Part shown: piece after piece, positions 11,097-28,412 of the stretch
Layout of the letters: every line of letters begins with the position of its first letter
Position numbering within the stretch: the first letter of the stretch is position 1
Origin: Spirochaetota bacterium
GTDB lineage: Bacteria; Spirochaetota; UBA4802; JAFGDQ01
Assembly (NCBI GenBank): GCA_034190185.1
Contig: JAXHTB010000001.1
Span: 1 to 40,116, forward strand
Direction: 5' to 3'
DNA length: 40,116 nt
Translations under genes and position numbers: made by a program
The notes under the pieces: generated by a model
Database searches by the model: none
Told to the model about the DNA's origin: nothing
Seen by the model: the letters and a program-made list of their open reading frames with translations, nothing else

Positions 11097-12584
11097 TTAT
11101 ATATCAAATTTAAAAATATTCTCCCTGAATAATTTTAAACAAGCTTTAACTGCATCAGTATTGTAAAGGATACCTCTGTTTTCTGATATGTGATCAAGTG
11201 CCTTATCTATACTGTATGCAGCTCGGTATGGTCGATGAAACGATATGGCTTCAACTACATCGGCAATACTTATGATTTTAGTTTCAGCTAAAATTTTATC
11301 AGCTGATAGACCTGATGGATATCCTGAACCATTACATCTTTCATGATGCTGCAAAACAATTTGGGCAACAGGCCATGGGAATTCTATCATTTTTAATATA
11401 TCGTAACCCGCTTTCGAATGCGTTTTTATGAAGCTTATCTCTAATTCGGACAGACGGCCAGGTTTGTTTAGGATTTCAATAGGCACAGAGATCTTGCCGA
11501 TATCATGAAGAGTTCCGGCAACACGAATTCCCTCAATCTGATCCTCGGGCAAATCCATCTCTTTTGCAATTGCGCATGCTAGAAGCGTCATACGTTGTTG
11601 ATGACCGGCTGTATACGGATCTCTTGTTTCAGTAATTGCAGAAAGGGCAAGAACAGTTTCATCTAATGTCCTTCTTAGAGTGTTATAATTTTGTTTAAGT
11701 TTTTCTTCAGCTTGCTTTCGATCTGTGATATCCTTTGATATTACAGTCACTGATTTAATCACTTCTGTTTCAGCCTCTATTACAGGGCTTATTGTACGTA
11801 AAAAGAACCTTTTGTCCCTTTGGCTTTGATGCTCGTATATTATAGACTTCCCCGTCTTCAAAGTTTGATTTATATATTGCATAAATTCTTCTGTTTCATC
11901 ATAAGAGTGAAATTTTCCATATTCTTTCCCAATTATATCATTTAATGTTAATTCAAGCCTTGATAAATATTTTTTATTTGCATAAAGATATTGCAGGTTA
12001 TATCTATCTATCAGATATACAGCATCTTCAGTTGATTCGATAAGAGAGTGATACTGTTCTTTACTCTCCATAAGAGCCATGCAAGTCTGATTTCGAGCTG
12101 TAATGTCTATGTAGAGAATTGTGGCGGCCTTAACAAGATTTTTATATATTATCGGAATTATTCTGCATTCATACCATGCAGTTCCAGGACCATAGGCTCC
12201 TATTGATTGAATCTCGCAGATCTCTGGTTTTCTTGTTTCGAAGACACGGTTTAAGGAATTACTCAATATTTCTCGGTGTCCTTCTGATACAAAGTCATAA
12301 ATACTTTTTGGGGTTTTTCCTTTTTTTACAGGGAAATGGGACAGGTCTCTATTTATTGAATGAATAATGCCATCCTTTGATACAACCATTATTATATCTG
12401 GTGTATTTTCAAGGTATATCTTAATGTTGCGTTCTAATTCATAATATTTTTTATCTACATGTATTTTTTTAGTGTTGGATGTTTTTATTTCAGAATTATC
12501 ATGAGATGATACATCCTGATTGTTTTTTTGTTGATTTTTTATTTTATTTTTATTATTCATGATTAAATGATTTGAATAATACAA
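11097..12584 (-). CDS. PAS-PAS-HD-GYP protein (putative c-di-GMP phosphodiesterase)
   Basis: The C-terminus carries HDIGKISVP ... HHERCNGSGYPSGL, the HD and GYP signatures. It is preceded by two PAS-like modules and a low-complexity N/K-rich N-terminus. The start codon choice is uncertain. Confidence 0.85.
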   Translation of the reverse strand: MYYSNHLIMNNKNKIKNQQKNNQDVSSHDNSEIKTSNTKKIHVDKKYYELERNIKIYLENTPDIIMVVSKDGIIHSINRDLSHFPVKKGKTPKSIYDFVSEGHREILSNSLNRVFETRKPEICEIQSIGAYGPGTAWYECRIIPIIYKNLVKAATILYIDITARNQTCMALMESKEQYHSLIESTEDAVYLIDRYNLQYLYANKKYLSRLELTLNDIIGKEYGKFHSYDETEEFMQYINQTLKTGKSIIYEHQSQRDKRFFLRTISPVIEAETEVIKSVTVISKDITDRKQAEEKLKQNYNTLRRTLDETVLALSAITETRDPYTAGHQQRMTLLACAIAKEMDLPEDQIEGIRVAGTLHDIGKISVPIEILNKPGRLSELEISFIKTHSKAGYDILKMIEFPWPVAQIVLQHHERCNGSGYPSGLSADKILAETKIISIADVVEAISFHRPYRAAYSIDKALDHISENRGILYNTDAVKACLKLFRENIFKFDI

Positions 12585-12837: not shown

Positions 12838-14658
12838 ATGAAAGACACAAAAATATTAATTGTTGAAGACGAGCCGTTTATAGCAATGGGCATTGAGCAG
12901 ACCTTGAGAAAATTTGAGTATAGTGTTACAGATATTGCGTGTTCCGGGGAGGAGTGTTTAAATTCGGTTTTGGTCAATAGGCCTGACTTAATACTTATGG
13001 ACATTAAATTAAGCGGAGAAATTGATGGGATTGAGGCTGCCGCTGCGATTCGAGAAAATTATGATATTCCTGTAATCTTCCTTACAGCGCTTTCTGATGA
13101 ACTATCATTGCAAAGGGCCAAGATTACTGAACCCTATGGATATATTGTTAAACCGATAAATGAAAGGGAGCTTTACTTTACAATCGAGATATCGAAATAC
13201 AGACATGAAATTGAAAATAATTTAAGAGAGAGCGAAAAAAAATACCATGCGCTATTTGAACAGTCAAGGGACCCTATTTTTTTGTTTAATGAATATGGAA
13301 ATATTACTGATATAAATCGATCAATGATTGATCTCTTCGGTTATAATAGGGATGAAATGATTGGAATGAACATGCGGGATTTATTTATTCTATTTGAAAA
13401 AGGTGATGAGTTTTTATCAAGCATAAGAGAGGCGAGTTTTGTCGAAAATTATGAAATAGAGCTTAAGAAAAAGGATTGCTCGCAGATTAATTGTTTGATA
13501 ACCTGTGTAATCATATTCGATGACCATAAAGATGATCCTGTTTGGCATAGTATTATTCGTGATATTACTGAAAAAAAACGCTTAGCAGAGGAAAAAGAGA
13601 TACTCCTGCATAATATTAGTAAGCGTGTGAAAGAATTAAACTGTTTATATACCCTCTCTGAGATTGTTGAACGGCCAGGAATTACACTTGATGAAATAAT
13701 TGAAGAGATGATAGATATTATCCCCCTTTCCTGGCAGTATCCTGATATTACATGCGTAAGAGCGGTTTTATATGACAAAGAATTTAAATCGGATAATTTT
13801 CAATTAACCGAATGGAGGCAGGCTTCTGACATCTTTATTGATGGAAAAAAAAGGGGGATCATTGAAGTCTGCTATTTGAAAGAAATGCCATTGTTGTATG
13901 AGGGACCATTTTTAAACGAAGAAAGATCCCTGATTGATTCTATTGCCGAACGTCTTGGAAGAATTGCTGAATATAAAGATGCAGTTGAAGAGTTGATTAA
14001 ATCGCGTGATCAATTACGCAGCCTTTCATCACATCTGCAATCTGTAAGAGAAGAAGAGAGAACAATGATCGCCCGTGAGATACATGATGAACTTGGTCAG
14101 TCCCTGACTGCTTTTAGGATGGATTTATCATGGATAAAAAATAGATTAAATACAGGACAGAATGAACTTATGGATAAGATTGAGTCAATGATCAATCATG
14201 TGGATGCAACTGTGGAGTCTGTCAGAAAAATATCATCTAAACTAAGACCGGGCTTATTAGACGATCTTGGGCTTTCCGCTGCAATTGAGTGGCATACGGG
14301 GAAGTATGGAAATAGCGAAACTATGAAGTGTGAGGTAGTTTGCGATCCTGAAGATATTATTGTAAATAGTGAACAAGCGATATCGATTTTTCGTATTTTT
14401 CAGGAAGCTCTAACAAATGTAGTTCGTCATTCCGGAGCTACATTGGCCGAGGTTCTGTTAACCGAAAAAGATGAGGCTGTTGAACTAACGATCAGGGATA
14501 ACGGCAAGGGCATAACTGACGAACAGGCCAACGCCCCAGGATCCTTCGGCATAATTGGCATGAGGGAAAGAGTAAATTCGTGTAGTGGTAAAATAAGTAT
14601 AAAAGGCGCTCAAAATAAAGGGACAATAGTCAAGGTGATAATCCCACTTAATAAATAG
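12838..14658 (+). CDS. Hybrid sensor histidine kinase: REC - PAS - GAF-like (LNCLY) module - HisKA_3 - HATPase_c
   Basis: The N-terminal receiver reads KILIVEDEP...DLILMDIKL...FLTA. A PAS module follows (YHALFEQSRDPIFLF). The H-box EEERTMIAREIHDELGQSLTA is of NarX/DegS type. The ATP-binding region includes DNGKGI and GIIGMRERV. Confidence 0.85.
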   Translation: MKDTKILIVEDEPFIAMGIEQTLRKFEYSVTDIACSGEECLNSVLVNRPDLILMDIKLSGEIDGIEAAAAIRENYDIPVIFLTALSDELSLQRAKITEPYGYIVKPINERELYFTIEISKYRHEIENNLRESEKKYHALFEQSRDPIFLFNEYGNITDINRSMIDLFGYNRDEMIGMNMRDLFILFEKGDEFLSSIREASFVENYEIELKKKDCSQINCLITCVIIFDDHKDDPVWHSIIRDITEKKRLAEEKEILLHNISKRVKELNCLYTLSEIVERPGITLDEIIEEMIDIIPLSWQYPDITCVRAVLYDKEFKSDNFQLTEWRQASDIFIDGKKRGIIEVCYLKEMPLLYEGPFLNEERSLIDSIAERLGRIAEYKDAVEELIKSRDQLRSLSSHLQSVREEERTMIAREIHDELGQSLTAFRMDLSWIKNRLNTGQNELMDKIESMINHVDATVESVRKISSKLRPGLLDDLGLSAAIEWHTGKYGNSETMKCEVVCDPEDIIVNSEQAISIFRIFQEALTNVVRHSGATLAEVLLTEKDEAVELTIRDNGKGITDEQANAPGSFGIIGMRERVNSCSGKISIKGAQNKGTIVKVIIPLNK

Positions 14659-14684: not shown

Positions 14685-15320
14685 ATGATAAATGTAATAA
14701 TAGCAGATGACCATGCAATTGTGAGAGCCGGATTAAAGCAGATCCTTTCGGAATGTTTGGATATGGAGGTGACTGATGAGGCTGTAGATGGGCAGGATCT
14801 ACTTGAAAAGGTGCGAAAAAAGGGGTGCGACGTAATATTGCTGGATATATCGATGCCTGGCAGAAGCGGTCTGGAAATATTGAAACAGTTAAAAGTGGAA
14901 AAACCTCGTATACCAGTTCTGGTTTTAAGTATGCACCCTGAGGAACAGTATGCCATACGAACATTAAAGGCCGGAGCCTCCGGATATTTGACAAAGGAGA
15001 CAGCTTCCGATAAATTAATTGAGGCCATTAGAATAGTCTACAATGGTGGGAAATATATCAGCCAAACCCTTGCAGAGGCTCTTGCAGATAACATAACTAG
15101 TGATAAGGAAGGTCCCCCTCATGAGTGTCTCACGGATCGTGAATATCAGGTTTTCTGCATGATAGCCTCTGGGAAAGCAGTCTCGGAAATTGCTAAGGAA
15201 TTGTTTCTTAGCGTTAAGACAATAAGCACTTATAGACGGCGTATTCTTGATAAAATGAATATGAAGAAGAATACAGAGCTGACTTACTATGCAATCGAGA
15301 ATAATATAGAATCCCTTTGA
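14685..15320 (+). CDS. NarL/LuxR-family response regulator (REC + LuxR HTH)
   Basis: Motifs IIADDH, DVILLDISMPG, VLVLS and YLTK are followed by LTDREYQVFCMIASGKAVSEIAKELFLSVKTISTYRRRILDKM. Starts 26 nt after the HisKA_3 kinase. Confidence 0.9.
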   Translation: MINVIIADDHAIVRAGLKQILSECLDMEVTDEAVDGQDLLEKVRKKGCDVILLDISMPGRSGLEILKQLKVEKPRIPVLVLSMHPEEQYAIRTLKAGASGYLTKETASDKLIEAIRIVYNGGKYISQTLAEALADNITSDKEGPPHECLTDREYQVFCMIASGKAVSEIAKELFLSVKTISTYRRRILDKMNMKKNTELTYYAIENNIESL

Positions 15321-15336
15321 TATGTAACATTATTTA

Positions 15337-15359
15337 TAGCCATTTACTGTTAATGGCTA
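15337..15359 (+). terminator. Weak hairpin after the response regulator
   Basis: TAGCCATT / AATGGCTA 8-bp stem with a 7-nt loop, followed by a T-rich tail. It is AT-rich, hence the low confidence. Confidence 0.3.
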
Positions 15360-15748
15360 GTTATTTATAAGCCATAAGCATTTTCGTAGTATTAGTTCCT
15401 TCCAATTTTTTATCAACCTCTAACTATGAACATTTGTCAATGTTTTACAGTAATCCTCCATTTTTCATGATATCGCAATTAGTATTATTCATAATTTACC
15501 CCATCGGAATATTTATTTCGGTTTGTAGGACAAATCCCTATTAGTTATGTCACTCACTCCTATAACAAATCGATCCAAAGTTTGACAAAAAAAAAGGAGT
15601 TTGAGGTGCATTAGAATAAGATTGTGACTGATTGCGTTTTTTTTCATCATCGGTTAAGTTGTCAATGCATAGTAAACAGGGTGGATTATATCGTAGAAAA
15701 TTCATTAATTTTAATGTATTTATTTTATTATACGGTAAGGAGGAATTT

Positions 15749-16225
15749 ATGAATTATAATGATGTTTTTGATAATAGTTTAAACGAATTCAAGCGTAATA
15801 TCAGGGTATTTATTATAGATGATTCTTTGTTTACATGCGGCAGGCTAATCGATCTTCTTTCCTCAGTCGAAGGGGTTAAGGTTGCCGGCATTTCCAGAAA
15901 TTCGAATGAGGCTCAAGTGATGATTGATGAGATCAAGCCTGAAGTGGTCATTCTTGAAGCTGTCTTATCCAGAGGAAGCAGCGCAGATTTGCTTTTGAAT
16001 ATCAAGCAAGATATGCCGGCAACTACTACTGTTGTATTTACCGACTATTATTATCCCGAAAATGTTGAAGAATGTGAAAATAATGGAGCAGACTATGTTT
16101 TCAATAAATTAACAGATTTTGACAGTTTGATTGATCTTATATTAAAGATATCTGTTGGTGATATATATACAACAAGATATTTTAATGAACAAAAAGACAG
16201 AATAGAAGCTGAGATAAATATTTAA
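15749..16225 (+). CDS. Stand-alone atypical receiver domain with Glu at the phospho-acceptor position
   Basis: ATG at 15749 follows AAGGAGG. The sequence aligns without gaps to the neighbouring regulator: FIIDDS (acidic pocket), VVILEAVLS vs VILLDISMP (Asp replaced by Glu), VVFTD (Thr) and YVFNK (Lys). There is no output domain. The track start at 15632 (TTG) lacks an SD. Confidence 0.7.
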   Translation: MNYNDVFDNSLNEFKRNIRVFIIDDSLFTCGRLIDLLSSVEGVKVAGISRNSNEAQVMIDEIKPEVVILEAVLSRGSSADLLLNIKQDMPATTTVVFTDYYYPENVEECENNGADYVFNKLTDFDSLIDLILKISVGDIYTTRYFNEQKDRIEAEINI

Positions 16226-16242
16226 TTATTATGGAGGAGATT

Positions 16243-16464
16243 ATGGAAGGTGTGGATGTTGCCGGAGAAGTTCTTTGTAATAAAATATTCATAGAAGATG
16301 AGGAAATCAAGAAAGATTTGAGATCGATTTTTGAAAATGGTCTGGAAGATAATAACAATATAACTAAAGGAATCAGGAAATTGGGAGATAAATTTTCGGA
16401 ATTAGCAGAAAGTATATATATATGGGCAGATATTGTCGAGATGGAAGACTTGTTAGATAAGTAA
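16243..16464 (+). CDS. Small acidic hypothetical protein (73-77 aa)
   Basis: ORF with ATGs at 16231 and 16243. The second has GGAGGAG at the correct spacing. 21 of 77 residues are D/E by my count. Starts 5-17 nt after the atypical receiver, and I recognise no domain. Confidence 0.5.
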   Translation: MEGVDVAGEVLCNKIFIEDEEIKKDLRSIFENGLEDNNNITKGIRKLGDKFSELAESIYIWADIVEMEDLLDK

Positions 16465-16628
16465 TAATATCAGGTAATTGTCCATCACAAAAATACCCCC
16501 ACGTAGGCACAAAGGAAATATGAGTTAAAAAATTATTTTAGCGTATCGGAATTTCAATTGATTTATCAATCCTCATTTATTGCTAAATATCATGTTTATT
16601 GTTTATCAATAAAGGATCCCATGAGCAG

Positions 16629-16656
16629 GTAGGGGCGACGGGCCCTTCGCCCCTAC
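16629..16656. repeat. GC-rich palindromic (REP-like) element
   Basis: GTAGGGGCGA-cgggccct-TCGCCCCTAC: a perfect 10-bp stem in otherwise AT-rich intergenic DNA. A decayed second copy lies at 28385..28412. Confidence 0.6.
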
Positions 16657-16730
16657 ATCTACTAAAGATGTGAAATATTGTAAGAGGGGATGCCGGAGAA
16701 GAGAATATTCTAAACGGGAGGGGATGCTAA

Positions 16731-16898
16731 ATGACTCAATATATTGGCGAGATATTGTTAGATTATAAGAAAATATTACCTGATCAATTAAAAGTGGCCT
16801 TAGAGATTCAAAAGAATGAGGGGAGTAGTTTAGGAGAGATACTTATCAGGCTTCGATTTATTGATGAAGAGACTCTTCGAAAATATCTAATACGATAA
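16731..16898 (+). CDS. 55-aa stand-alone MshEN / T2SSE_N-like domain protein (candidate c-di-GMP receptor)
   Basis: Not in the ORF track (<60 aa). The ATG is preceded by GGGAGGGG at 7-nt spacing. The translation is MTQYIGEILLDYKKILPDQLKVALEIQKNEGSSLGEILIRLRFIDEETLRKYLIR. It shows the tandem LGE-[IL]-L...L..AL..Q / LGEIL...[FI]...E..L..L repeats of the GspE/PilB/MshE N-terminal domain. Confidence 0.6.
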   Translation: MTQYIGEILLDYKKILPDQLKVALEIQKNEGSSLGEILIRLRFIDEETLRKYLIR

Positions 16899-16973
16899 GA
16901 AGCAATCGTTGAAGTGAAGAGGTGCTTCCATAATCATGTATACTTAAGATGGTGATAAACTGTGATTTTATAC

Positions 16974-17104
16974 CGCTGATGAACGCAGATTTAAAAGGAT
17001 TATATATTCAAATGAACTTTTACAAACTTAACAAAATTTTCATTGGCTATTTAGTTTCAATCGCTTAAAATCTTCAAAAAAATAAAAATCTGCGTTTATC
17101 AGCG
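16974..17104. repeat. Inverted-repeat element (19-bp arms, 93-nt spacer)
   Basis: CGCTGATGAACGCAGATTT (16974..16992) pairs with AAATCTGCGTTTATCAGCG (17086..17104). The single mismatch is a G.U pair if transcribed from the + strand. A partial third arm (aaaatctacggc) follows. Confidence 0.5.
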
Positions 17105-17421
17105 AAAATCTACGGCAAAAATACATGAATAATAATTGTCAATTATGCCCTTTGTGGGTGTGGGTTTGATGAGCAATAGAAAAAAGGCGTATTAATGACC
17201 AAAAATGTACACATTTATATCAGGATGAGCGTATTCTCTTATTGCTAAGAGGGGTAAGTAATTTTTTTTATTACAAAGGCAATTCCCTATATGACTGAGA
17301 AGGCTTCTGAAAGTGCACCACCCTGGAATCATTGCGAATGCATGATCAATGGATTTATATATCTAAAGGATATAGTTAATAGCTCATATAAGCTACATAG
17401 AAAGGTTTTTAAGGAAATAGA

Positions 17422-19314
17422 ATGTACTTAAGAAAAATGATAGAATGGATAAAAATAGAAAGTGTGAGAATGTTCAAACAATATTTGCGAAGTGATTGGT
17501 ACAAATTTTTTACAATAGGTACTCTTGTCATTATCTGCTCTGTTTTTGTATATTATTACCATTTTATTCTTGGATATGACAATGTTTATACTCACCTGTT
17601 CTATGTTCCTATTGTATTATCAGTTCTATGGTGGGGAGGTAAGGGCTTATATGTTGCGGTCGGTTTAACATTATTGCTGATATCTAGCAATATTTTTAGT
17701 GGGAGAATGATTTTTGACAACTATATCAGGGGCGCGATATTTATAATGATCTCACTTGTTGTCTATTTTCTAAGTGAAAGGATTAAAAGGGCGCGCGAAA
17801 GGGAATATCATCTTAACTCTGTATTACATGCAATTCATAATGTGAATCAACTTATTTCAACAGAGAAGGATAGGCAGCAGCTTATACAAGGCGTGTGTGA
17901 TGATCTTACAAGGAATAGGGGTTATATTAACGTATGGATAGCCCTTTTCGATGGCTTCGGAAAATTTGACGTTGCCGCGCAATCCGGAATTGGCGAAGAT
18001 TTCAAACTTATTGTTGATAAAATGAAAGACGGAGACTTGACGAAGTGCTCCGGCAAGGCGCTTCCGGAATCGGACGTTATAATAATAGAATACCCTATAT
18101 CTCAATGCGCAAATTGTCCTTTAAGTGGCAGATATGCCGGCAGGGGAGCGATGACTGTGCGGATTAAGCATAGAGACAGGTTATATGGGATTATGACAGT
18201 GTCTATTCCTTTAGATTTCATTCATAGTTCAGACGAACACGATTTACTGAAGGATGTAGCCGGAGATATTGCTCTTGCTCTGTATAGCATTGAAGAGGAA
18301 GAGAGAAGAAAGAGCGCTGAAGATGCGCTAAGAGAAGGTTATGAAAGATTTAGGGGAATAATAGAGAATGCCCCAATCGGATATTTTCAGATCAGCAAGG
18401 ATGGTTTATGGCAGTATGTTAATTGGGAATGGCAGGCTATCCATGGGTATTCCCATAATGAAGTTATTGGCAAGAATTTTGAAATTGTTTACCCAGAAGA
18501 AGTTAAAGAAGAAGTTAGGGGAAACGTTCTTAGAGCCTTATCAGGCGAGGTCATATCAGGGAAAACTATCCAGCTTTGCAAAGAAGGGAACATAACGCAT
18601 CATTTAATTAGTCTTCAGCCAATTTATCAGCGCGGAGGAATAGAAGCGATAGAGGGATTTGTTAATGATATTACTGAACGTATACAGGCAGTGAATATGA
18701 TTAAGGAATCGCTTAAGGAAAAGGATTTGCTTCTTAGAGAAATTCACCACCGGGTTAAAAACAACATGCAGGTAGTATCCAGTATTCTTAACCTTCATTC
18801 GGTATATACATGTGAAGATCATAAAAAGGATATTTTTAGGGATGCCCATGACCGTATCTATGCGATGGCATTAATTCACGAGATGTTGTATCAGTCACCA
18901 AATATGGTAAATGTCGATTTTAGTGAGTATATTAAAGATTTTACAGCTCAATTGTTTCATTCTCATAATATAGATTCTGGAAGGATAAGATTGGTAATGG
19001 ATATTCAGAATGTGCATCTTGGCATTGATCAGGCAATACCATGCGCTCAGATCATAAATGAGATTTTTTCGAACTCATTAAAACATGCATTTCCGGAAAA
19101 GAGAGAGGGAGAGATCAAAATAGATTTTCGAAGGCTTGAAAATAATAATTATTCACTAATGATAAGCGACAATGGGGTGGGTATTCCGGATGGATTGGAC
19201 ATTAACAAAACAGATACCCTAGGGTTAAAGCTGCTGAACGCCCTTGTTAAACAGTTGAAAGGCAACATAGAAATTGTCAAAAACAATGGCACACTGTTTG
19301 TCATTACCTTTTAG
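17422..19314 (+). CDS. Membrane sensor histidine kinase: TM region - Cys-containing GAF-like module - PAS - HisKA_2 - HATPase_c
   Basis: There are about 4 N-terminal hydrophobic helices. The H-box LLREIHHRVKNNMQVVSSILNLH is of HisKA_2 type. A PAS module (FRGIIENAPIGYF) is present. The ATP-binding region includes NSLKHAF, SDNGVGIP and LGLKL. Confidence 0.85.
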   Translation: MYLRKMIEWIKIESVRMFKQYLRSDWYKFFTIGTLVIICSVFVYYYHFILGYDNVYTHLFYVPIVLSVLWWGGKGLYVAVGLTLLLISSNIFSGRMIFDNYIRGAIFIMISLVVYFLSERIKRAREREYHLNSVLHAIHNVNQLISTEKDRQQLIQGVCDDLTRNRGYINVWIALFDGFGKFDVAAQSGIGEDFKLIVDKMKDGDLTKCSGKALPESDVIIIEYPISQCANCPLSGRYAGRGAMTVRIKHRDRLYGIMTVSIPLDFIHSSDEHDLLKDVAGDIALALYSIEEEERRKSAEDALREGYERFRGIIENAPIGYFQISKDGLWQYVNWEWQAIHGYSHNEVIGKNFEIVYPEEVKEEVRGNVLRALSGEVISGKTIQLCKEGNITHHLISLQPIYQRGGIEAIEGFVNDITERIQAVNMIKESLKEKDLLLREIHHRVKNNMQVVSSILNLHSVYTCEDHKKDIFRDAHDRIYAMALIHEMLYQSPNMVNVDFSEYIKDFTAQLFHSHNIDSGRIRLVMDIQNVHLGIDQAIPCAQIINEIFSNSLKHAFPEKREGEIKIDFRRLENNNYSLMISDNGVGIPDGLDINKTDTLGLKLLNALVKQLKGNIEIVKNNGTLFVITF

Positions 19315-28384: not shown

Positions 28385-28412
28385 GTAGGGGCGAAAGCCC
28401 TTTCCCTTCTAT
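28385..28412. repeat. Decayed copy of the GC-rich palindromic element
   Basis: GTAGGGGCGAaagcccTTTCCCTTCTAT: the left arm is identical to 16629..16638 and the right arm is mutated. Both copies are preceded by AGCAG. Confidence 0.45.

Follow-up and report, generated by a model that had tools for sequence, protein, structure and literature searches.

In the uncultured Leptospirales genome assembly GCA_034190185.1 (Spirochaetota), we analyzed positions 1 to 40,116 of contig JAXHTB010000001.1, hereafter the window (40,116 nt). It encodes a 55-aa open reading frame (ORF), the mini-ORF, which is an MshEN_N subdomain standing alone with nothing attached. MshEN is one of two or three widespread receptor domains for cyclic di-GMP (c-di-GMP) and has been studied almost exclusively within ATPases or glycosyltransferases. 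The window gene derives from a longer gene by C-terminal truncation: the glutamine that closes the second ligand motif is gone, as is the strongly basic tail that a 91-aa orthologue keeps. The best explanation as a whole, to which we assign a probability of roughly 0.55, is that the mini-ORF encodes a weakened or decaying receptor rather than a working c-di-GMP adaptor.

Family membership and truncation

The features that carry this finding are the following (window positions).

16731..16898, + strand: mini-ORF, 55 aa, an MshEN_N / c-di-GMP_motif unit only, stop codon counted in (ORF list, hidden Markov model (HMM), alignment, structure model)
16716..16723, + strand: Shine-Dalgarno (SD)-like sequence GGGAGGGG, 7 nt 5' of the mini-ORF ATG (read directly)
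16896..16898, + strand: TAA stop opposite a CAG (Gln) codon of the orthologue, the motif-II glutamine, Q61 of MshE (DNA and protein alignments)
16899..16943, + strand: vestigial C-terminal tail, 15 codons homologous in frame to the orthologue tail (read-through translation, BLASTP)

The mini-ORF starts with ATG at 16731, ends with TAA at 16896-16898 and encodes the peptide MTQYIGEILLDYKKILPDQLKVALEIQKNEGSSLGEILIRLRFIDEETLRKYLIR. An earlier reading of the sequence, the first-pass annotation, whose cut-off for displayed ORFs was 60 aa, had described it as unannotated, but public gene calls include it: a public protein collection contains the peptide, and the gene is also called on L117, an independent contig from another sample (ERZ23498357). 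The ORF, the SD with its 7-nt spacing, and a 10-bp repeat at 16684 and 16718 lie where that annotation placed them.

It had also proposed that the whole length is a two-motif MshEN unit, and three lines of evidence agree. The NCBIfam model NF053729.1 ("c-di-GMP_motif, MshE-related"; 53 positions, curated cut-off 38 bits) matches residues 5-53 at model positions 2-50 with 56.4 bits (E 1.9e-15); the orthologue scores 56.9 bits over positions 2-53. In a PDB search, the mini-ORF aligns without gaps to residues 9-58 of Vibrio cholerae MshE (5HTL), and the GSPII domains of Thermus thermophilus PilF are further alignment matches. Two 24-residue motifs flank a 5-residue spacer (KNEGS in the mini-ORF, KNTGR in MshE), and the final residue of motif II is missing owing to the stop. 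An AlphaFold2 model (mean pLDDT, the predicted local distance difference test, 85.9) that draws on 23 stand-alone homologues predicts a compact bundle of four helices at residues 5-11, 17-30, 34-40 and 46-53. Its top PDB structure match is 5HTL_B (query-normalized TM-score, TMq, 0.87; root-mean-square deviation (rmsd) 0.5 A over 49 columns), and all 12 of the best matches are MshE or PilF GSPII structures, with E-values that are weak because the query is very short.

The search first suggested with the T2SSE_N model gave no match (Pfam scan at E up to 10, PF05157 included), whereas NF053729 passed its cut-off. The Pfam model covers the MshEN_C part, which is not present in the mini-ORF, so homology is unaffected. 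The chain stops after helix 4 and the alpha/beta MshEN_C (T2SSE_N1) subdomain is absent; the product is thus not a full MshEN domain.

An exhaustive HMMER search of 1.84 billion representatives returned 529 relatives at E up to 0.001, which mostly have several repeats or are fusions of MshEN_N. The majority of the top-ranking ones (P0003-P0150) are 200-400 aa long and carry three to six tandem MshEN_N units. Only one relative is close: P0002, the 91-aa orthologue, 75% identical across mini-ORF residues 1-55 and encoded by two short metagenome contigs in ENA. One contig, L039, is syntenic with the window and presents the C-terminus of a receiver gene, then a 77-aa ORF, then the mini-gene. A separate scan of metagenome contigs gave a single 35%-identical match and no close orthologue. 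The window subfamily is rare and lineage-specific, with two known members. The search of relatives for similar small genes, a check suggested in the first-pass annotation, thus yields stand-alone homologues and a syntenic orthologue; the window copy is cut by a stop.

Glutamine occupies the stop-codon column in all 22 other stand-alone homologues aligned. Downstream of the TAA, the read-through translation EAIVEVKRCFHNHVY matches the orthologue tail GATVEEKRRFHNHLG at 10 of 15 positions (BLASTP, E 1e-5). Beyond these 15 codons similarity ends, the frame being disrupted by a 4-nt indel and by stops. Contig L117 is 99.54% identical to the window over 1095 nt, shares the TAA as well as an insertion in the leader, and differs by five single-nucleotide polymorphisms (SNPs), all outside the mini-ORF. 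An assembly error behind the stop is ruled out, as L117 independently carries the same TAA. Programmed read-through is unlikely: the frame stops 18 codons on and tail homology breaks at the 4-nt indel.

Over the 55 codons, the mini-ORF and its orthologue differ by 16 non-synonymous and 9 synonymous changes, with a ratio of non-synonymous to synonymous rates (dN/dS) of 0.39. The neighbors' ratios against L039 are 0.42 (77-aa ORF) and 0.27 (receiver C-terminus). The synonymous excess is marginal for the mini-ORF alone (P = 0.045); for the three genes pooled, P = 4e-4. The SD and ATG are kept in the orthologue, which reads GGGGGGG at the SD position in the DNA alignment. No difference between the two orthologues touches the hydrophobic clusters, the motif glycines or Q27; the changes fall at surface positions. 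These selection data show that the subfamily is a real gene; as one pairwise comparison of 25 substitutions, they are silent on whether constraint continued after truncation. Between the window and L117, which are 0.46% apart, the mini-ORF carries no SNP where 0.8 would be expected.

A chance, non-coding ORF with superficial MshEN resemblance has next to no probability. The ORF is short and has no Pfam match, and word-index protein searches with the mini-ORF and with P0002 each returned just their own query. This reading is refuted by the HMM match over the whole length, the 75%-identical orthologue in conserved synteny, paralogues within the same genome and the confident fold match. The mini-ORF is a genuine gene for a free-standing MshEN_N, the 53-residue four-helix module that binds c-di-GMP in MshE/PilB/PilF-type ATPases, and its subfamily is paralogous to, and diverged from, the stand-alone MshEN_N mini-proteins that are common in Leptospirales.

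Ligand-site residues and probable function

We scored the ligand site in MshE numbering, with the mini-ORF residue in brackets. Kept are L10 (I5), G11 (G6), L25 (L20), L29 (L24), Q32 (Q27), L39 (L34), G40 (G35), L54 (L49) and L58 (L53). Changed are R9 (Tyr4), G18 (Lys13), I19 (Lys14), R38 (Ser33), G47 (Arg42) and Q61 (stop). The glycine at motif position 3 is therefore present in both motifs (G6, G35), as are all six residues of the hydrophobic clusters (I5, L20, L24, L34, L49, L53). Position 1 of each motif, where Arg, Lys or Leu would stack on the ligand, holds Tyr4 and Ser33. The position-24 glutamine is Q27 in motif I and replaced by the stop in motif II. The turn glycines are K13 and R42 (E13 and D42 in the orthologue), and the model still predicts the turns.

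The residue alignment recommended in the first-pass annotation thus divides: motif glycines, Leu clusters and Q27 are kept, and the stacking residues, turn glycines and motif-II Gln are changed. The substitutions it reported (Y/S for the leading Arg, K/R for the central Gly) stand, with one correction: the turn glycine of motif I corresponds to K13 rather than K14, and that of motif II to R42. Its caution that nucleotide binding is not assured was well placed.

In V. cholerae MshE, the backbone amides of the position-3 glycines bind guanine O6/N7; with G11L no binding is left, and with G40I it is about 70-fold weaker (Wang et al. 2016, PMC5013675). Single Leu-to-Ala changes cost more than 10-fold, Gln32 and Gln61 each make two hydrogen bonds, to ribose and phosphate, and the changes named for the non-binding XpsE include I19R, R38G and Q61V (PMC5013675). 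Ile is tolerated at the hydrophobic cluster positions (PMC12002112). In PilF GSPII-B, where the stacking residues are Lys and Leu and an introduced Arg lowers affinity, affinity falls 77-fold with Q218E at the motif-II Gln, and no binding remains once both Gln are mutated (PMC11731258). PilF GSPII-A is a natural non-binder with Ser39, His33, Arg62 and Ala41; S39R, H33Q and R62Q were needed together for measurable binding, and restoring Ser39 left none (PMC12002112).

By these residues, one half-site of the mini-ORF looks intact, the effect of Tyr4 aside. The other lacks the stacking side chain and the Gln, and has the new C-terminal carboxylate where the Gln belongs. From the residues and the published mutants we infer that c-di-GMP binding by the mini-ORF is weak or absent. 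In the window lineage a nonsense codon took the place of the motif-II Gln, and both a ligand contact and the basic C-terminal tail were lost with it. The subfamily also has Ser and Tyr at the stacking positions of motifs II and I, Lys at the I19 position, and changes at both turn glycines (Lys and Arg in the mini-ORF). One c-di-GMP half-site is probably crippled, and the mini-ORF has probably lost high-affinity binding or retains far less of it. If it is made at all, the 55-aa product would most likely be a c-di-GMP-blind or weakly binding remnant, and any remaining role would run via protein-protein contacts rather than as a diffusible high-affinity adaptor.

Several observations weigh against this reading. 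The backbone-amide glycines G6 and G35, the six hydrophobic cluster positions and Q27 are all intact. Isolated VcMshEN_N 1-62 binds c-di-GMP at 0.35 uM (PMC5013675), so the free module is sufficient for binding. The stacking Arg is dispensable, as PilF K167L binds at 2 nM (PMC11731258); Tyr4 may stack well, Arg being dispensable there. The PilF Ser39 result came from a background that also has Ala at the Gly position (PMC12002112). Finally, the ORF is open, its SD is intact, and dN/dS has no sign of relaxation, with 25 substitutions that cannot be assigned to a lineage.

The first-pass annotation had proposed a small diffusible c-di-GMP adaptor. Under that proposal the mini-ORF would be a functional stand-alone receptor that binds at physiological levels and signals to a partner, whether pseudo-receiver, acidic protein or kinase, or buffers the nucleotide. 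The retained glycines, Q27 and Leu clusters, the binding of the isolated module and the intact, well-signaled ORF with its dN/dS of 0.39 fit this role. So do a family HMM score above cut-off, the predicted MshEN_N fold, the finding that a hydrophobic stacking residue can raise affinity (PMC11731258), and a genome with 16 GGDEF, 2 EAL and HD-GYP genes. It is nevertheless a misfit for the window copy, because the stop at the motif-II Gln truncates that copy relative to its 91-aa syntenic orthologue. The stop leaves a C-terminal carboxylate beside the phosphate site and removes the basic tail, the sole candidate output of the orthologue. Ser33 sits at motif-II position 1, like PilF Ser39 (PMC12002112), the turn glycines are K13 and R42, and K14 lies at the I19 position (compare XpsE I19R, PMC5013675). 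Three better-conserved stand-alone paralogues in the genome could do the job. On balance a working adaptor is unlikely.

At the other extreme, the nonsense mutation could have inactivated the gene outright, leaving the 55-codon ORF as a functionless pseudogene remnant not yet eroded. The stop is premature relative to the orthologue and to all other homologues, the tail is already broken past codon 15 by the 4-nt indel and stops, a repeat element has inserted in the leader, and the subfamily is rare (two members among 1.84 billion representatives). Yet the 55 codons contain no frameshift or internal stop despite the decay of the tail, and the SD and ATG are intact. Core residues have zero substitutions, dN/dS is not above the range of neighboring genes, and the two strains share an unchanged mini-ORF (though only 0.8 SNPs were expected). 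We regard a dead gene as improbable. A weakened or decaying receptor remains our preferred reading, and the mini-ORF is best described as a new degenerate, truncated member of a known domain family in minimal architecture.

Leader, neighborhood and paralogues

The leader of the mini-ORF is 266 nt long and contains the following features.

~16531..16706: window-specific insertion in the leader, boundaries approximate (DNA alignment, BLASTN against own genome)
16629..16656: GC-rich hairpin GTAGGGGCGA-N8-TCGCCCCTAC resembling repetitive extragenic palindromes (REP-like), within the inserted element
16684..16693 (copy 1) and 16718-16727 (copy 2, overlapping the SD), + strand: 10-bp direct repeat GAGGGGATGC

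The insertion is not present at the orthologous locus (L039/L040) and is present in L117. A dispersed element of about 145 nt at 16531-16675 is 87.6% identical to contig C61:6747-6891. The hairpin arm sequence occurs 21 times in the genome, counting both orientations, at about 10 loci; hairpin cores were also found on contigs C23, C38, C196, C203, C540 and C608 and at window position 28385. The dispersed consensus, GTAGGGGCGAACGGCCGTTCGCCCCTAC, is GC-rich within a 34% G+C genome. The hairpin at 16629..16656 is not an intrinsic terminator: it is followed by no T-run and was not called by the terminator scan.

The repeat GAGGGGATGC has two matches in the whole window, at 16684 and 16718, with 0.02 expected from shuffles. 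GAGGGG of the first copy belongs to the inserted element and is also found at the end of the C61 copy. We accordingly interpret the 10-bp repeat as an element terminus that resembles the native SD rather than as a duplication with a regulatory role. A target-site duplication was rejected as its source, since both copies lie on one side of the insertion. An Rfam scan of 15300-17500 found no riboswitch or other family (a snoRNA match at E 0.15 is attributed to chance), and promoter and terminator scans were at chance level.

Around the mini-ORF we identified these genes.

11097-12584, - strand: PAS-HD-GYP gene (HD_5 117.8 bits, PAS_4; motifs HDIGK and HHERCNGSGYP)
12838-14658, + strand: REC-PAS-HisKA_3 kinase
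14685-15320, + strand: NarL-type regulator
15749-16225, + strand: stand-alone receiver with Glu at the phospho-acceptor position (VVILEAVL; Response_reg 31.9 bits), syntenic partner
16231..16464, + strand: 77-aa acidic ORF, syntenic partner between receiver and mini-ORF
17422-19314, + strand: HisKA_2 kinase, 3' of the mini-ORF

The pseudo-receiver, the 77-aa acidic protein and the mini-MshEN_N form a conserved three-gene block. The receiver and the 77-aa ORF are conserved at 88-90% nucleotide identity 5' of the mini-gene in L039 (90% for the 77-aa ORF), and synteny in this relative concerns solely these three genes. The output-less pseudo-receiver described in the first-pass annotation is confirmed, with Glu replacing the phospho-acceptor Asp; the 77-aa ORF begins 5 nt after it. 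This acidic ORF has no Pfam match and no homologue in six genomes of the same family. The synteny search of these six genomes found receivers at best 27-34% identical, with no mini-ORF on the same contig; the genus is represented by a single genome among those compared. The PAS-HD-GYP gene is present as previously described, 4.1 kb upstream. At 4 kb and on the other strand, its proximity is weak evidence of linkage; it is the pseudo-receiver and the 77-aa acidic ORF that are conserved as partners.

The source is a metagenome-assembled genome (MAG) of 4.1 Mb with 34% G+C in 640 contigs. Its repertoire of 16 GGDEF, 2 EAL and 5-6 PilZ matches plus the HD-GYP gene implies that the organism runs c-di-GMP signaling. 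NF053729 has eight matches in the genome: two PilB/GspE-sized frames, two frames of 738 and 233 aa, and four small ORFs of 65 aa (C21), 72 aa (C123), 103 aa (C4) and 55 aa (the window). Stand-alone MshEN_N mini-genes in this genome therefore number at least four.

The 65-aa copy (C21:6754-6951) belongs to a highly conserved 64-65-aa family that occurs in each of the 41 genomes by which the order was sampled, plus 59 named Spirochaetota/Leptospirales MAG loci, and is mostly annotated "hypothetical protein". Its consensus is MAKPLLGEiLlEnGEITqEQLdkALEvQKKEGGLIGIILVnlGfIdEqTLVKYLAiQAERVvkSe. In 53 of the 59 loci the gene immediately follows one for an FGGY carbohydrate kinase, and in 43 it is convergent with a class-IV aminotransferase. 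The family has both glutamines, all four glycines and Leu at both stacking positions, and by the same residue yardstick looks like a strong c-di-GMP binder. The search with the mini-protein alignment returned named relatives that are nearly all MAGs of Spirochaetota or Leptospirales, with no cultured Leptospira species among them. The mini-ORF is 47-54% identical to this family, and the genome's own 65-aa orthologue sits at C21; the mini-ORF is therefore a diverged paralogue, and it fails an orthology test on identity, tail and gene context.

Further small stand-alone MshEN_N paralogues lie at C123:5526-5681 (72 aa) and C4:1535-1684 (103 aa). The 72-aa paralogue has a basic KIKIKERKEK tail and adjoins a gene for a sigma-54-type AAA+ regulator, and second-best matches in relatives suggest that other genomes of the family carry orthologues of it. 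Pfam scans of the 65-aa and 72-aa paralogues give weak, sub-threshold matches to DUF2949 and DUF4388, which may be unrecognized MshEN_N relatives.

Alternatively, single unfused MshEN_N modules, several paralogues to a genome, may make up a class of small c-di-GMP effectors of Leptospirales that has not been described before; the three-protein signaling module of the window would be a specialized case and the truncation an adaptive re-tuning rather than decay. The half-degenerate MshEN_N would then need to form a homodimer or heterodimer to sense c-di-GMP, or would serve other MshEN_N partners as a ligand-blind decoy. We hold this as a speculative option of quite low probability. If free-standing single MshEN_N modules do bind, they would be the smallest protein c-di-GMP receptors known and could explain missing effectors in spirochaete-type genomes. 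Should it be decaying, as we favor, the mini-ORF itself adds little beyond showing that such mini-genes duplicate, diverge and decay, although its natural truncation is usable to gauge the contribution of the motif-II Gln contact.

Comparison with known systems

Earlier work (PMC5013675, PMC11731258, PMC12002112) has described the domain, the motif and the way the ligand is bound thoroughly, and a curated NCBI model exists. Like the MshEN_N of V. cholerae MshE (5HTL, PMC5013675), the mini-ORF has two tandem 24-residue motifs with a 5-residue spacer in ungapped alignment and, by prediction, a bundle of four helices (rmsd 0.5 A); it also keeps the glycines that donate backbone amides, the Leu clusters and the Gln of motif I. 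It differs in being free-standing, without MshEN_C or ATPase, and in ending one residue before Q61, with Tyr at R9, Ser at R38, Lys at G18 and I19, and Arg at G47.

GSPII-A of T. thermophilus PilF (9G1W, PMC12002112) is the third-best structural match of the model. It shares the Ser at motif-II position 1 and the missing Gln at the end of motif II, two deviations that prevent GSPII-A binding (PMC12002112). In contrast to the mini-ORF, GSPII-A has His for the Gln of motif I and Ala for the Gly of motif II, its helix 1 is extended by an N-cap, and a C-terminal subdomain acts as a clamp.

Among MshEN_N-only forms, Wang et al. 2016 (PMC5013675) list (MshEN_N)2 of Cyanothece cce_1044, MshEN_N-AAA_31 of EpsG, REC-MshEN_N of Bd2402, and fusions with CheX, peptidase and CheA, with no single unfused module in their table. 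In the collection of papers that we searched, none describes such a module. These forms and NfrB resemble the mini-ORF in having MshEN_N without the T2SSE_N1 part and differ in being tandem or fused; EpsG and NfrB-type models are secondary matches to the mini-ORF. The complex of the Xanthomonas citri PilB N-terminal domain with PilZ (7LKM) offers a degenerate MshEN-type helical domain that serves protein-protein contact and not nucleotide binding. At 12% sequence identity (structural match TMq 0.77), and as part of an ATPase, it can serve as a precedent only, for a ligand-independent role.

PilF GSPII-B (8PDK, 8PE0; PMC11731258) pairs Lys/Leu stacking with nanomolar binding and bears both on Tyr4 and on the Leu/Leu pair of the 65-aa family. 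It differs from the mini-ORF in having both glutamines and a C-terminal subdomain and in being part of an ATPase. The Leptospirales 64-65-aa family is closer in architecture, being a single stand-alone module from the same genome at 47-54% identity; it differs in its four Gly, both Gln, Leu stacking residues, QAERVVKSE tail and FGGY kinase context. The order-wide 65-aa paralogue is the better lead for a free-standing receptor, as Leu stacking goes with nanomolar affinity in PilF.

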